A DNA stretch of 47,150 bases. It comes from Candidatus Gastranaerophilales bacterium. Lineage in GTDB: Bacteria; Cyanobacteriota; Vampirovibrionia; Gastranaerophilales; UBA9971. Numbering within the stretch: the stretch's first letter is position 1; each line of letters starts with the position of its first letter. Location of the stretch: positions 1 to 47,150 of the forward strand of contig JANQEB010000025.1 in NCBI GenBank assembly GCA_028278605.1, read 5' to 3'. A model generated the notes under the pieces. That model did no database searches. It was not told the origin of the DNA and saw only the letters and a program-made list of their open reading frames with translations. Of the stretch, positions 4,826 to 10,417 are shown piece after piece. Made by a program: the position numbers and the translations under genes.

Positions 4826-5022
4826 CAGAAGGAACAAAGAAACTGCTTTATGAGGCTTATGAGTATTGCGAAACGCATGGCAAAAGTGCACAGTTTACGA
4901 TTCAATATATGCAAGATTTTGCAGATACTGAATTAGAGACTGTGTTTGATTTTCTGTTCGAAGAATTGGAAGAAAACATTAAGAGAGCCGGGATAGCTTT
5001 TGAGATAGGGTCCGATGAATGA
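4822..5022 (+). CDS. Small acidic hypothetical protein
   Basis: ATGA overlap with the upstream gene. GGAGAAG RBS. Confidence 0.5.
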   Translation: MTEGTKKLLYEAYEYCETHGKSAQFTIQYMQDFADTELETVFDFLFEELEENIKRAGIAFEIGSDE

Positions 5023-7730: not shown

Positions 7731-7756
7731 AGCCCTGCGAAAGTGGGGCTTTTTTG
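7731..7756 (+). terminator. Rho-independent terminator
   Basis: AGCCCT-gcgaaagt-GGGGCT stem followed by TTTTTT. Confidence 0.75.
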
Positions 7757-7892
7757 TGTCTTATTGGCGCCTATAAACCACATGGGACTAGGTATAAAAA
7801 ATCAAGCGGTAGGACGAAGATATTTTATTTGTTGTATATCTGTCTAATTTTTTTATAAATGATCTTAAACATTAATTGCCCTACCGCCCGAT

Positions 7893-7943
7893 TTAAATGC
7901 TGCTAGAGGTGGGATACTGGAACTCCTCGTATCTTTCTAGCAT
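7893..7943 (-). CDS. Micro-ORF B1 (16 aa, MLERYEEFQYPTSSSI)
   Basis: ATG lies 8 nt downstream of GGAGG within AAAGGAGGTGA (7949-7959 on +). Homologous to micro-ORF B2. Confidence 0.45.
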   Translation of the reverse strand: MLERYEEFQYPTSSSI

Positions 7944-7987
7944 AGGCCTCACCTCCTTTGTGGCTTAATTTAATCTGCTACAACAGA

Positions 7988-8095
7988 TTAGCGCCGGGGA
8001 ATTTTTGTTAAAAATAAGGCCCGATCCCCACCCAACCACCCACGGATCATTTTTGCCTGATTAGCTAACTCTTGCACTTGTTTTGCTAATGGCAT
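7988..8095 (-). CDS. Micro-ORF A1 (35 aa, MPLAKQVQELANQAKMIRGWLGGDRALFLTKIPRR)
   Basis: ATG lies 8 nt downstream of GGAGG within AAAGGAGGTGA (8101-8111 on +). The leader is paralogous to the one at 10277-10345. Confidence 0.5.
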   Translation of the reverse strand: MPLAKQVQELANQAKMIRGWLGGDRALFLTKIPRR

Positions 8096-8101
8096 AGGCC
8101 T

Positions 8102-8152
8102 CACCTCCTTTTTGATTTATTTAAGACATAATTCAGAGGGGAGGTGTTTTTT
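8102..8152 (-). promoter_or_regulatory. Hairpin pairing CACCTCC with the micro-ORF A1 Shine-Dalgarno; reads as a terminator-like hairpin plus T6 on the + strand
   Basis: CACCTCC (8102-8108) pairs with GGAGGTG (8140-8146). T6 at 8147-8152. Conserved at 10284-10333. Confidence 0.5.
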
Positions 8153-8185
8153 AAAGCATTATATAATTTTATAAAAATGTATGTC

Positions 8186-8212
8186 TTTTAAAAGAGAGGG
8201 CCGAGAAGGCCC
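8186..8212 (-). terminator. Rho-independent terminator of the lipoprotein gene
   Basis: On the minus strand, GGGCC-ttctc-GGCCC followed by TCTCTTTT, starting 7 nt after the stop codon. Confidence 0.7.
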
Positions 8213-8218
8213 TTAAGA

Positions 8219-8752
8219 TTAATATTTTTTGTAGAAGTCTAGAAAACGTTGTTTGTTTTCTTCTGTTAACTCAGACTCTACAAAGGATTTAGAACCCATT
8301 ATACGGATTTCTGTTTTTTTTGATTCCCCGATTTCACGCAACAATTCTCTTTGTATGTCGTAGTATGCATATTCATAGACTTTGTTGCCAACCATATTCC
8401 TACTGTTGACAGATCCAGTCTCAGTCTTTAAGGCGTATGATTTTCCATCAACTAGTAGGTCCATGGATTCACCTGGTTTGATAAACATCCAATCAAGGTC
8501 TTCATAAACAACAAAAAAACTATAATCATTATGGTTGGTTGTTGTTACAATCTTCACTGCGTTTAGCTCCATTTTCCTAGCAGCTAGCCCAGCGCCTCTA
8601 GCCCAACTTTCACTTCCTGCAAAGTTAAGATAGTTGTTTTCCATAGCATATGAATGGGTACCTTTATACTTATCTTTGCTTTCTCTTACTGAATATGCAT
8701 TGCATCCTACTGCAATTAGCAGGATGCCCACCGTAAAAAATTTAATCATCAA
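8219..8752 (-). CDS. Putative lipoprotein (the only long minus-strand gene)
   Basis: AGGAGG RBS 6 nt upstream of ATG. Signal peptide with lipobox-like LIAVGC. Confidence 0.7.
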   Translation of the reverse strand: MMIKFFTVGILLIAVGCNAYSVRESKDKYKGTHSYAMENNYLNFAGSESWARGAGLAARKMELNAVKIVTTTNHNDYSFFVVYEDLDWMFIKPGESMDLLVDGKSYALKTETGSVNSRNMVGNKVYEYAYYDIQRELLREIGESKKTEIRIMGSKSFVESELTEENKQRFLDFYKKY

Positions 8753-8790
8753 TATCCTCCTGTGTTGACGTAAGAATCCCTTACGCCACA

Positions 8791-8892
8791 GTTAGCACGC
8801 CTCTAGATATTAATCACAGGATCAAATATTTAGAGATCCCCATGACACAAGGGACTCTTACGGACCTGTGATTACTAAGAGACGGTGCTAAC
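8791..8892 (-). promoter_or_regulatory. About 100-nt extended imperfect hairpin in the 5' leader of the lipoprotein gene
   Basis: Arms gttagcacgcctct/agagacggtgctaac, taatcacagg/cctgtgatta (10 bp perfect) and agagatcccc/gggactct. A C-A mismatch on + becomes a G-U pair on the minus RNA. Confidence 0.5.
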
Positions 8893-8902
8893 GTCTAAAC
8901 GT

Positions 8903-8940
8903 ATTATAAGAATGTACTAAAAAAAGCAACAAAAAATTGT
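8903..8940 (-). promoter_or_regulatory. Candidate sigma70-type promoter for the lipoprotein gene
   Basis: On the minus strand, a perfect TATAAT (8903-8908) with a TTGTTG/TTGCTT-like -35 at 15-18 nt spacing. Confidence 0.4.
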
Positions 8941-8994
8941 AGCGAAGGATAAAAAAGTTAATGACATACTGGGACAAGTGTGTATATTAGATAT

Positions 8995-9894
8995 ATGGAA
9001 TTTAAATCATTACTAGAGTTACTCGCCTATTTTAAAGATGAGAGTGTTTGCAAGGAATATTTAGAACGGATGCGATGGGGTGGTACAATCCAATGTCCCC
9101 ATTGCGGTAATCACAAGATTTATAGGACGAATCGAGGTTTTAAATGTGCGGGGTGCTCTAAAAAGTTCTCGGTAACATCAGGCACTATTTTTGAAAATAC
9201 AAAACTACCATTGAAGACTTGGTTCGCAGCTATTTATTTATGCACTGCCCATAAGAAGGGTATCAGTTCAACGCAGCTTCACAGAGATTTAGGTATTAGC
9301 CAAAAAACAGCATGGTTTTTATTGCACAGGATACGACAAATAATGCAAGATGATTCTTCAATCGAAGGTATTGTAGAAGTGGATGAAACTTATGTCGGTG
9401 GCAATATGTTAAATAAGCCAAAGTCTCAAAGGATCAAAAACGCCCAGGGTCGCAGCCTTTCTCATAAGCAGCCGGTTGTGGGGATATTGGGCAGAGACAA
9501 TAAAGTTGTAGCTAAACCTATTCCAGATTCGACAGCGAAGACCTTGAAGCGGGAAATAGCATCCTACGTCAAATCAGGTTCTACGGTTATTACAGACTCC
9601 TGGAAGGGATATAAAAACTTAAACTTGATGTACGACCATCAAGTTGTCGATCACTCTAAAGATGAATTTGTCAAAGGCTCTTATCATATAAATTCTGTAG
9701 AAGGGTTCTTTTCAATGCTCAAAAGAGGTATTATAGGCATTTATCACGCAATTAGTAAAAAGCATTTACACAGATATTGTCATGAATTTTCTTATCGCTA
9801 CAATACCAGAGAAATCAAAGACTGTGAAAGATTCCAGGATGTGTTCTCAAATATCAAATGCAGGCTGACTTACAAGGGCTTGATTCATGAGTAA
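8995..9894 (+). CDS. IS1595-family (ISXO2-like) DDE transposase
   Basis: N-terminal zinc ribbon CPHCG...CAGCSKKFSVTSGTIFENTKLPLKTWF. DDE core VEVDETYVGG...ITDSWKGY...HINSVEGFFSMLKRG...HLHRYCHEFSYRYN. A GTG at 8980 is also possible as start. Confidence 0.9.
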   Translation: MEFKSLLELLAYFKDESVCKEYLERMRWGGTIQCPHCGNHKIYRTNRGFKCAGCSKKFSVTSGTIFENTKLPLKTWFAAIYLCTAHKKGISSTQLHRDLGISQKTAWFLLHRIRQIMQDDSSIEGIVEVDETYVGGNMLNKPKSQRIKNAQGRSLSHKQPVVGILGRDNKVVAKPIPDSTAKTLKREIASYVKSGSTVITDSWKGYKNLNLMYDHQVVDHSKDEFVKGSYHINSVEGFFSMLKRGIIGIYHAISKKHLHRYCHEFSYRYNTREIKDCERFQDVFSNIKCRLTYKGLIHE

Positions 9895-10015
9895 GAAGAA
9901 AAAGAAGATAAAAAAAGTCGAGCGACCGGATAAATATGAAGAAAAACTCAAGCTTGATATGTCTTTTGACGAAGCTATCAAAAAGATGATCAAAAAGAAA
10001 GTAAAGAAAAAATAA
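9887..10015 (+). CDS. Possible 42-aa lysine-rich peptide overlapping the transposase stop
   Basis: ATG 9887 overlaps the transposase 3' end. MSKKKKKIKKVERPDKYEEKLKLDMSFDEAIKKMIKKKVKKK. No clear RBS. Confidence 0.25.
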   Translation: MSKKKKKIKKVERPDKYEEKLKLDMSFDEAIKKMIKKKVKKK

Positions 10016-10037
10016 TTTTACTTTTATATATGTAAGT

Positions 10038-10063
10038 AAAATTAATAATGCCCCGTGAGGGGC
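10038..10063 (-). terminator. Rho-independent terminator of micro-ORF cassette 2
   Basis: On the minus strand, GCCCC-tcac-GGGGC followed by ATTATTAATTTT, 13 nt after the B2 stop. Confidence 0.55.
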
Positions 10064-10076
10064 GCCTTGACCCACC

Positions 10077-10139
10077 CTACCACCCATATGTCATGTTAGT
10101 GTTGGTGGGGTATTCTTGTGAAAAGAAACGATCCATCAT
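10077..10139 (-). CDS. Micro-ORF B2 (20 aa, MMDRFFSQEYPTNTNMTYGW)
   Basis: ATG lies 9 nt downstream of GGAGG within AAAGGAGGTAA. Homologous to B1. Confidence 0.45.
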   Translation of the reverse strand: MMDRFFSQEYPTNTNMTYGW

Positions 10140-10192
10140 TGGGCATTACCTCCTTTTGTTTTGGATTTCCTCTGCTACCACAGGGAAGTTTC

Positions 10193-10276
10193 TTAACCCG
10201 CCCTTCCGCCCACTGCCATCTTAGGCATAAATGAAAAATTCTTGTTTGCATTGGGTGCAAATTTTTCAACAGCCAT
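10193..10276 (-). CDS. Micro-ORF A2 (27 aa, MAVEKFAPNANKNFSFMPKMAVGGRAG)
   Basis: ATG lies 8 nt downstream of GGAGG within AAAGGAGGTAA. Conserved leader and hairpin upstream. Confidence 0.5.
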   Translation of the reverse strand: MAVEKFAPNANKNFSFMPKMAVGGRAG

Positions 10277-10283
10277 TGGCGTT

Positions 10284-10333
10284 ACCTCCTTTTTAAATTA
10301 TTTGAGACATAATGCAAAGGGGAGGTGTTTTTT
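10284..10333 (-). promoter_or_regulatory. Second copy of the Shine-Dalgarno-pairing / terminator-like hairpin
   Basis: ACCTCC (10284-10289) pairs with GGAGGT (10321-10326). T6 at 10328-10333. By hand alignment, 63 of 73 leader positions match copy 1. Confidence 0.5.
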
Positions 10334-10417
10334 AAAGCCTTATATATTTTACAAAATTTATAACCTGTCCCATCTAGTCTATAGTCGCCAACTCGACACA
10401 CTGTCGTACATTTTTGG

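Follow-up and report, generated by a model that had tools for sequence, protein, structure and literature searches.

The described systems that come closest to the element reported here are the ops/RfaH site, bacterial RNA G-quadruplex (G4) elements, leader-peptide attenuators of the trpL, pyrL and ermCL type, the bar minigenes of phage lambda, and the leader ORFs of synthetic "bicistronic design." The ops signal pauses RNA polymerase: its 12-nt form (ops12) reads GGCGGTAGCGTG, pausing needs T11-G12 together with an upstream G, and the center of the consensus pause is variable (PMC5995543). Bacterial RNA G4 elements lie near ribosome-binding sites or in coding regions, leader-peptide attenuators cover a pairing-capable RNA with a short ORF behind a strong ribosome-binding site, and bar minigenes are ORFs of 2 to 3 codons that act through peptidyl-tRNA drop-off. 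Here we report a phage micro-ORF cassette with a G-rich 3' signature, an element of a kind that is undescribed.

The window, by which we mean the whole stretch of DNA that was analyzed, is one entire contig of 47,150 bp from a 2.6-Mb MAG with a completeness of 92.5%, whose NusG is closest to those of Candidatus Gastranaerophilales (Melainabacteria) MAGs, at up to 96% identity. Since its genes include those for a replication initiator and a DnaB-like helicase, a large terminase and a Mu-type portal, a head protease and a major head protein, as well as a tape measure and a tail fiber, nearly all of them on the plus strand, the window represents all or most of a phage genome, 47 kb in length, whose host belongs to the Gastranaerophilales (Melainabacteria). 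It has a single minus-strand island, at about 7780-10400. The genetic code is standard in both host and phage, and TAG makes up 14 to 20% of stops, a usage that rules out an alternative code or the avoidance of TAG. The same phage was represented in other samples by one identical contig only, which leaves no population variation to compare. No close relatives of the region were found in the phage database, nor in IMG/VR by way of the neighboring proteins, and searching IMG/VR with the leader string returned only chance matches.

A sequence-only reading of this DNA had reported a 15-nt G-rich motif at the 3' end of four micro-ORF units. Pattern search and direct reading together located three exact matches to GGGYGGWWGGGYGGG and a shortened fourth copy that lacks the last G tract, all on the minus strand; the sites had been correctly recognized, with positions off by 1 to 2 nt. 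The copies are as follows.

8027-8041, minus strand: motif copy A1, GGGTGGTTGGGTGGG, translated as G-W-L-G-G; its ORF continues 12 codons past the motif.
10071-10085, minus strand: motif copy B1, GGGTGGTAGGGTGGG; the TAG at 10079-10077 is the stop codon of micro-ORF B1.
10197-10211, minus strand: motif copy A2, GGGCGGAAGGGCGGG, in the other phase and read V-G-G-R-A-G, with a TAA stop 1 nt past the motif.
7878-7889, minus strand: shortened motif copy B2, GGGCGGTAGGGC, 4 nt past the TAA stop of micro-ORF B2.

The motif is far above chance in the window, where 100 dinucleotide shuffles produced 0 matches. Its only matches in the 2.6-Mb MAG are the three window copies, and given that the remainder of the MAG and the reversed control each gave 0, it is specific to the minus-strand island. 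It is thus not background sequence in the host, the outcome of a genome-wide search that the sequence-only reading had proposed as a check. Among 400 genomes of the same class, 19 carried the motif, at one copy each, against about 19 matches for the reversed control; none of these copies stood behind a micro-ORF, and their surroundings were ordinary sequence, mostly higher in G+C. In general, G-rich 15-mers are not scarce in the MAG (140 per Mb at a G4Hunter score of at least 2.0), and the four window copies are not independent of one another, being housed in two paralogous units.

These two units run from promoter to terminator and are 74% identical. Each consists, in order, of a promoter-like site, a leader that opens with an anti-Shine-Dalgarno (anti-SD) string, micro-ORF A, a small hairpin, micro-ORF B and a terminator. 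The two units are near-identical in their leader and SD regions and divergent in their ORF bodies, and AAAGGAGGT precedes all four micro-ORFs. The parts of the units and the genes between them are listed in the direction of minus-strand transcription.

10318..10327, minus strand: anti-SD string CACCTCCCCT of the unit 1 leader, which pairs with the A2 SD.
10193..10276, minus strand: micro-ORF A2, 27 codons, with AAAGGAGGT at 10292-10284.
10167..10187, minus strand: conserved hairpin between ORFs A and B of unit 1, with a TGGTAG loop.
10077..10139, minus strand: micro-ORF B1, 20 codons, with AAAGGAGGT at 10156-10148.
10007..10063, minus strand: end of unit 1, comprising a GC hairpin (10063-10050), an AT-rich hairpin (10044-10013) and T6 (10012-10007).
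8980..9894, plus strand: IS1595-family transposase gene, between unit 1 and the lipoprotein gene and outside the cassette.
8219..8752, minus strand: lipoprotein gene, between the two units; context only.
8187-8158, minus strand: promoter-like AAGACA-18-TATAAT of unit 2.
8137..8146, minus strand: anti-SD string CACCTCCCCT of the unit 2 leader, which pairs with the A1 SD.
7988..8095, minus strand: micro-ORF A1, 35 codons, with AAAGGAGGT at 8111-8103; called as a gene.
7989-7972, minus strand: unit 2 counterpart of the hairpin between ORFs A and B, with a TTGTAG loop.
7893..7943, minus strand: micro-ORF B2, 16 codons, with AAAGGAGGT at 7959-7951.
7796..7815, minus strand: end of unit 2, comprising the 3' arm GTCCTACCGCTTGAT (7815-7801), which pairs with the B2 motif, and then a T run.

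Both units terminate within 60 to 90 nt, and no further gene lies ahead of either terminator. Past its end, unit 2 meets the convergent left operon, and unit 1 is followed by the IS and then by the lipoprotein gene, which has a leader of its own. In unit 2, the B2 copy with its flank, ATCGGGCGGTAGGGC (7892-7878), pairs over 15 bp with GTCCTACCGCTTGAT, the arm beginning 1 nt past the stop. Because this 15-bp stem is followed by a T run, it is an intrinsic terminator that uses the B2 motif as its 5' arm; no terminator-arm partner of this sort was found for the other three window copies. Unit 2 folds far better than its shuffles (z = -4.7), and the overall fold of unit 1 is unremarkable (z = -0.9). 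Both B ORFs contain C-rich strings, CCCCACC in B1 (10110-10104), which is complementary to the GGTGGG of its own motif, and CCCACC in B2 (7913-7908). We rejected an involvement of the IS1595 element, which is present in a single copy in the MAG, has no clear inverted repeats and sits past the unit 1 terminator. The motif is also unlikely to be the operator of the neighboring ribbon-helix-helix protein, since phages without any protein in common with the window phage have it as well.

This recurrence emerged from pattern scans, which found the same cassette in about 12 to 15 unrelated phage and metagenome contigs. Its parts follow in a set order: a near-perfect SD (GGAGGTGAT or GGAGGTAA), a GCC-containing spacer, ATG, 16 to 19 unconstrained codons and the motif, with four G tracts arranged G3-Y-G2-WW-G3-N-G3 and often with an in-frame ATG ahead of them. 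In IMG/VR, the pattern scanned was AAGGAGGT, ATG, a gap of 45 to 66 nt and then motif positions 1 to 12. It gave 5 loci, one of which is a chance match in an amidase-like gene, while the remainder are micro-ORFs (L051, which is identical to L052, L053 and L055); the reversed-motif control gave 2 loci that represent 1 distinct sequence. The spacer GATGCCAAATG is common to L053 and L055 and resembles the window's AATGCCCAATG and AACGCCAATG. The metagenomes were scanned with a pattern of the same type that included the GCC spacer and did not require the last G tract, and this returned 17 loci, 13 of them distinct, with about 10 being micro-ORFs of 19 to 38 codons. The same pattern run against 596 Gb of cellular genomes returned 2 loci, neither of which was micro-ORF-like. 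Two further members came from an SD-string scan (L078) and a genome scan (L175, from a Phycisphaerae MAG). The search patterns fixed the SD, the GCC spacer, the Y at position 4 and the WW, so that finding them conserved outside the window carries no independent weight.

The cassette contigs have no proteins in common with the window or with one another, and no partner protein recurs beside the cassettes, whose neighbors include terminase, exonuclease, Sak4-like, DNA polymerase, excisionase-like and HNH endonuclease genes. Outside the window, the cassettes lie mostly in tight operons, co-oriented with the neighboring phage genes; the upstream gene usually ends at the cassette SD, with its stop codon overlapping the SD, and the next gene starts 20 to 50 nt past the motif. 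Beside its cassette, L078 also carries a 2-codon ORF, ATG CTC TAA, behind AAAGGAGGT. The SD-start string of the cassettes is also found at the head of phage genes in which a stop falls within a Gly-rich catalytic motif and the coding sequence carries on in another frame. A related G-rich repeat of Dehalococcoidia is noncoding and lies just 3' of opposite-strand genes, where its GATGAT..GGGYGG string tolerates 1-nt indels and stops. The covariance models of Rfam 15 gave no match at gathering score in the window or its relatives and only chance-level matches at E ≤ 10; this includes the Glutamine riboswitch and Downstream-peptide motif, which were considered on account of the cyanobacterial lineage and for which there was no Rfam signal. 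A literature search found no paper with these 15-mers in a phage context. A guide- or antisense-like role of the ORF bodies was rejected, as their matches to host or phage were at chance level only.

How the motif is placed with respect to translation differs from what had first been proposed, namely that it occurs independently of reading frame. This holds only in part, for A2, where the motif begins 62 nt past the ATG and, as had been noted, in a different codon phase; in A1, B1 and B2, by contrast, it starts exactly 51 nt past the ATG and is always read GGG YGG WWG. The translation of the A1 copy as G-W-L-G-G had been read correctly. The WW positions had further been said to supply the TAG codon of B1 and B2, but among the window copies this TAG is a real stop only in B1, B2 having already stopped at a TAA two codons earlier.

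Across the family, the motif lies in phase 0 in 13 of 19 nonredundant units (p = 0.002), or in 10 of 15 when the window units are set aside (p = 0.009). The TAG inside the motif is the actual stop codon in seven phase-0 units, whose peptides end G-W-stop or G-R-stop, and the stretch between ATG and motif is open in all 13 distinct metagenome loci. Eight units have an ATG about 3 codons ahead of the first Gly codon, and in L200 and L205 it is displaced by one codon; it is in frame in 10 of 10, at -9 in the phase-0 units and at -8 in the phase-II units. The central loop is TA in 8 of 13 phase-0 units versus 1 of 6 others, and this skew suggests, on small numbers, that the central TA has been selected as a stop codon.

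Other features of the motif concern the nucleotide level. The fourth tract (N-GGG), which lies past the stop and was not forced by the pattern, is present in 8 of 10 distinct metagenome matches and is missing in B2, L211 and L213. The first loop is C or T, a choice that the search fixed outside the window; the second is TA, TT, AA, AT or TC, and the third can be any base. L200 (phase 0) and L078 (phase II) encode homologous peptides (TH..DC.C..CR) and carry the motif in different phases, and GGGCGGGTTAAG is common to A2 (phase II) and L204 (phase 0), which read it differently; these two comparisons indicate that relatives keep the nucleotides while the phase changes. The unforced G tract past the stop, the variable loops and the phase changes between relatives support conservation at the nucleotide level, not the peptide level. 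The open frames, the phase-0 bias, the in-frame ATG and the use of TA as a stop point to a signal that works together with translation. On these comparisons, the motif is probably a nucleic-acid signal that acts with translation, at the place where translation of the micro-ORF stops. The preference of the sequence-only reading for a nucleic-acid element over a peptide motif is thus upheld by the post-stop tract (8 of 10) and the phase changes, although the indifference to translation that came with it is at odds with a motif in phase 0 in 13 of 19 units.

As to what this signal may do, we tentatively favor a translation-gated switch, in which the four G tracts would form a quadruplex-type RNA fold that is opened and closed by terminating ribosomes; we consider this possible rather than probable. 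When not covered by a ribosome, the four RNA tracts (3-2-3-3, with loops of 1 to 2 nt) would fold compactly in the manner of a G-quadruplex. A ribosome loaded by the very strong SD could reach the stop codon, which lies in the central loop, only by melting this fold, and ribosome traffic on the micro-ORF would toggle the G tracts between folded and free. Once free, the tracts could pair with C-rich partners in the window, namely the leader anti-SD CACCTCCCCT and the CCCACC of the B ORFs, and in unit 2 also with the 3' arm of the terminator. The output of the cassette would be termination, mRNA stability or downstream re-initiation.

Folding predictions are in keeping with such a switch to a degree. 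ViennaRNA with G-quadruplex energies predicts that most copies or units fold as a two-tier G4. The predicted gain in energy is modest: it does not exceed about 14 kcal/mol, and several units gain nothing. Four tracts of at least 2 G with short loops are present in 3 of 4 window copies and in 8 of 10 unforced relatives, and among relatives the G tracts are kept while the loop letters vary (partly imposed by the search), as a quadruplex requires. The second tract has only two G, so that the fold would be a two-tier or a vacancy G4, weaker than a canonical one. A flanking stem encloses the motif and presents it as a loop in A1, L055, L199 and L211 (summed p = 0.04), and pairing of the initiation region with the 3' flank reaches a summed p of 0.012 (-21.6 kcal/mol in A1), flank pairing being significant in a minority of units only. 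The earlier suggestion that the tracts are capable of a quadruplex agrees with the fixed G, the variable loops and the predicted two-tier folds, except in B2, which has no fourth tract. The absence of that tract from B2, L211 and L213 also speaks against the G4 reading in general, as do the weak 3-2-3-3 pattern and the modest energy gain, and the in-frame ATG about 3 codons before the motif is left unexplained by it. In a more elaborate version, which we regard as highly improbable, the cassette would be a ribosome-gated sensor whose guanine-vacancy quadruplex (3-2-3-3) is completed by a free guanine nucleotide, reporting the guanine-nucleotide or alarmone state to the phage. The fold, placed at the stop of a saturating micro-ORF, would hold or release terminating ribosomes and in this way set read-through of the adjacent terminator or downstream re-initiation, as a portable module across diverse phages.

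The strongest rival to the translation-gated switch places the signal in the DNA rather than in the RNA. The motif would be a pause signal of the consensus or ops type in the nontemplate strand, at which RNA polymerase waits at Y12/G13 for the micro-ORF ribosome, as a checkpoint of transcription-translation coupling that might be used by a NusG-like factor. The C-type copies with TA have GGCGGTAG unchanged, the reading GGCGGTAGGGTG in L199 and in some Dehalococcoidia copies is a full fit to GGCGGTAGnnTG, and T stands at motif position 7 in 15 of 19 units (p = 0.01). When the window copies are set against the 12-nt ops sequence GGCGGTAGnnTG, B1 (GGTGGTAGGGTG) departs from it at C3>T only and B2 (GGCGGTAGGGCA) at T11>C and G12>A, and with A2 reading GGCGGAAGGGCG and A1 reading GGTGGTTGGGTG, no window copy fits all of the fixed ops positions. 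Of 10 unforced cases, only 6 have a pyrimidine at Y12, whereas G14-G15 are conserved even though the pause does not need them. A pause would also leave unexplained the phase preference, the in-frame stop and the in-frame ATG, and the skew of TA toward phase-0 units (8 of 13 versus 1 of 6) is what would be expected if it were selected as a stop codon. Searching the MAG with PF02357 found one NusG, at its usual locus beside tRNA-Trp, and no RfaH-like NusG paralog, and none of the phage proteins tested matched an NGN or KOW protein. In addition, the window units close with terminators and do not lead into long operons, and the motif lies inside translated ORFs, not in an untranslated leader. A pause of this type is therefore possible in our view, although we hold it to be on the unlikely side.

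It is unlikely that the signal resides in the peptide, with a C-terminal M-x-x-G-(G)-[W/R] that slows release, as in an arrest or leader peptide, or that ends a family of micro-proteins, the G-rich letters being a by-product of Gly, Trp and Arg codons. Such a reading would account for the in-frame Met that precedes the first Gly by three codons in 8 of 19 units, with L200 and L205 deviating by one codon, and for the fact that G-[W/R] is obtained from both phase 0 and phase II. The products of ORFs of 19 to 23 codons fit inside the ribosomal exit tunnel, and the His/Cys pattern common to the bodies of L200, L078 and L199 argues that at least some of the bodies are real peptides. However, the GGN-GGG past the TAG is untranslated and yet conserved (8 of 10), most of the bodies have no relationship to each other, the phase of the motif differs between peptides that are related, and the noncoding Dehalococcoidia repeat keeps GATGAT..GGGYGG despite 1-nt indels and stops.

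We give similarly little credence to a tether of the Shine-Dalgarno kind, in which base pairing between GGUGG-type tracts and the 3' tail of 16S rRNA would keep the ribosome on the mRNA during or after termination, either for re-initiation at the next gene or in a ribosome trap formed with the in-frame AUG 15 nt upstream. The setting of the cassettes outside the window, mostly in tight operons with the next start 20 to 50 nt past the motif, would suit re-initiation, and an in-frame AUG lies near the stop in 10 units; neither window unit, however, has a downstream gene before its terminator. Paired by hand, GGGUGGU is able to form 7 pairs with the anti-SD AUCACCU, and the second half of the motif contains GGGAGGG in L200 and L214. 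Half of the copies are instead of the C type (GGCGG), which pairs poorly with CCUCC, so that the tether fits the T type only, and A, the best SD letter, is missing at Y4 in all four window copies. The MAG contains no 16S rRNA gene from which to take the host's own tail.

Programmed recoding, in which a UAG in a G-rich context followed by a hairpin would be read through or bypassed by a -1 shift to yield a second, longer product, strikes us as improbable. B1 does have a GC hairpin 11 nt past its UAG, and L204 and L055 have strong structures 10 to 19 nt past theirs. Phase II of every copy reads G-G-[R/W]-[A/V]-G, which four units use natively, and phage genes headed by the SD-start string stop in Gly-rich catalytic motifs and resume in another frame. 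But the frames past the motif are short and unrelated between units, no slippery heptamer is present, TAG is an ordinary stop in host and phage, and a G after UAG is not known as a leaky context in bacteria. A take-off/landing hop (YGG to YGG, 8 nt apart) was rejected, as Y4 equals Y12 in only about half of the family.

It is more doubtful still that the copies have no function of their own and are remnants of two rounds of duplication, with the metagenome lookalikes being products of the search pattern. The units are indeed paralogous, the IMG/VR scan gave 5 loci versus 2 for its reversed control, and many features of the family are imposed by the pattern. Nevertheless, the ORF bodies diverged while motif, SD and leader stayed, the unforced features (short ORFs, in-frame TAG, fourth G tract and open frames) are far from random, and 17 metagenome loci stand against 2 unrelated ones in 596 Gb of genomes. 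Least probable of all is that the C-rich plus-strand complement serves as a Rho-loading or protein-binding site, as had also been suggested: the Dehalococcoidia repeat does lie 3' of opposite-strand genes, where its C-rich, G-poor RNA of about 80 nt would resemble a rut site, but the cassettes of other phages are co-oriented with their operons, the SD, ATG and open frames are on the G-rich strand, and Rho loading in the window is contradicted by a C excess limited to the copies of about 15 nt, as against the 60 to 80 nt of C-rich, G-poor and unstructured RNA that a Rho site takes, and by a good plus-strand intrinsic terminator at 7731-7750 that precedes them.

Short ORFs behind perfect ribosome-binding sites are usually overlooked in phage annotation, and one class of them has a conserved signal at the stop codon. 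The cassette occurs in phages of unrelated hosts and is essentially absent from 596 Gb of cellular genomes, and it is among the few regulatory features so far described for a Melainabacteria phage. Should the signal turn out to govern the release of ribosomes, re-initiation, pausing of RNA polymerase or read-through of a terminator, phages would have in it a new portable part for gene expression, and it would also be a compact natural case of a ribosome reading a G-rich structure. An insert of about 100 nt with four mutable G tracts is a cheap and concrete test system.

The cassette differs from each of the known kinds of system in defining features, or shows no clear fit to them. With the lambda bar minigenes it has in common that it is phage-borne and consists of very short ORFs behind strong SDs, the 2-codon ORF of L078 being the closest in length; unlike bar, which has 2 to 3 codons and acts by peptidyl-tRNA drop-off, the cassette ORFs have 16 to 38 codons and a conserved 3' motif. 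The leader ORFs of bicistronic design are likewise strong-SD ORFs of about 16 to 20 codons directly upstream of the next operon gene, but the stop of the cassette ORF is separate from the following start codon, the following gene has an SD of its own, and the window copies have no next gene. Leader-peptide attenuators resemble it in that a short ORF with a strong ribosome-binding site covers pairing-capable RNA, in unit 2 the 5' arm of the terminator. They differ in that the cassette has no regulatory codon runs, no regulated gene follows it in the window, and its conserved element is G-rich and single-stranded rather than a set of alternative hairpins.

The remaining two comparisons concern the motif itself. 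Like bacterial RNA G4 elements, it has four short-looped tracts with conserved G and variable loops, placed where the ribosome must unwind structure, although its tracts are 3-2-3-3, it lies at a stop rather than at an SD, it belongs to a dedicated micro-ORF, and its fold is a predicted one. Like the ops/RfaH site GGCGGTAGnnTG, with whose core GGCGGTAG the C-type TA copies are identical, it has G at -11/-10 and Y-G at -1/+1 in the correct spacing, and it comes early in the transcript (PMC5995543). Unlike ops, the cassette has no RfaH-like paralog to go with it, its motif sits at the stop of a translated ORF and includes extra conserved G tracts, and terminators follow. By analogy with these systems, the cassette would appear to act most like a leader micro-ORF that carries a cis-acting nucleic-acid signal, and to look most like ops or a short-looped G4.

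We found that the sequence TAYCCCACC, encoding Tyr-Pro-Thr, is kept at the nucleotide level in both B ORFs, with its C-rich part at 10110-10104 in B1 and 7913-7908 in B2 (minus strand). The T-type motif (the GGTGG form of the G-rich motif) of the same unit contains GGTGGG, to which CCCACC is exactly complementary. The conserved role of CCCACC may lie in base pairing and not in the peptide. Each of the two paralogous units also contains a conserved small hairpin between its A and B ORFs:

10167-10187, minus strand: hairpin of unit 1, loop TGGTAG
7972-7989, minus strand: hairpin of unit 2, loop TTGTAG

The string GTGGTAG is common to the inter-ORF hairpin and the B1 motif, and in the frame of A2 the hairpin repeats the TGG TAG pair, so that a second copy stands in frame six codons past the TAA.

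Between the two units lies a transposase gene, the sole copy of its kind in the host MAG:

8980-9894, plus strand: IS1595-family transposase

We searched its flanks in the window for terminal inverted repeats and a target duplication and found none. The unit 2 terminator has a 3' arm and T run to which the minus strand at ~8940-8975 is similar, so the element may have inserted into a unit 1 tail that was once longer. Elsewhere in the host MAG, ARAGORN called a tRNA with anticodon TTA, which would read UAA and UAG (contig C211, 7447-7521); it has an acceptor stem of 8 bp and a mismatched anticodon stem, and it adjoins tRNA-Leu. The host MAG yielded no tRNA-Lys. The TTA gene may be either a mis-call or a suppressor-like tRNA.

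The SD-start string GGAGGTGATGCCAAATG was present at 100 IMG/VR loci (L056-L153, e.g., L066:1575-2950), at roughly 45 of which it heads a single SNF2-like helicase family. The helicase frame ends within the Walker A motif, where DMGLG is followed by an insert of 4-7 nt containing a stop (TAGGA, TGAGT, TGACA, and others) and then by KT..., and the rest of the protein (429 codons) carries on in a different frame. Similar short stop-containing inserts split other genes:

L076, L087, L088: terminase P-loop
L118: C5-methyltransferase motif I
L115: SPPY methyltransferase motif
L077, L130: NrdD-like C-terminus

One locus with the string, L083, carries an unbroken version. These inserts at Gly-rich motifs look like programmed bypass or frameshifting.

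Dehalococcoidia MAGs (L218-L260; e.g., L222, oriented position 5003) carry a G-rich intergenic repeat of ~80 nt, with 10-30 copies per genome and the layout GGGCTAAGCCG..GATGATACGA-GGGCGGCAGGGTGGG-AATAGATAAC..GAGGGGTGGGG. The repeat had no match in Rfam and no Watson-Crick consensus structure, and since it tolerates 1-nt indels and stops we consider it non-coding. It usually sits 60-140 nt 3' of an opposite-strand gene; as RNA of that gene's strand, its complement would be rich in C, poor in G and rut-like. The repeat and the phage G motif have ATGAT..GGGYGG.AGGGTGGG.AT in common.

In L055, a tRNA-like gene (L055:57-221, minus strand) begins 4 nt past the G motif; its acceptor arms match, it has an insertion of ~90 nt, and it scored 35 bits against Rfam tRNA without an ARAGORN call. 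The frame beyond the TAG stays open for ~70 codons, running across this gene. Two near-identical metagenome contigs, L202 and L207, differ by a 62-codon gene, present in L207 and missing from L202, with the junction exactly at the SD (GAGAGGAGGC) 3' of the G motif, so that here a gene has been gained or lost at a ribosome-binding site in the manner of a cassette. Finally, in L078 (oriented ~1334-1350) a G-motif micro-ORF adjoins a 2-codon minigene, ATG CTC TAA, which lies behind AAAGGAGGT, is followed by a terminator, and is reminiscent of the lambda bar minigenes.
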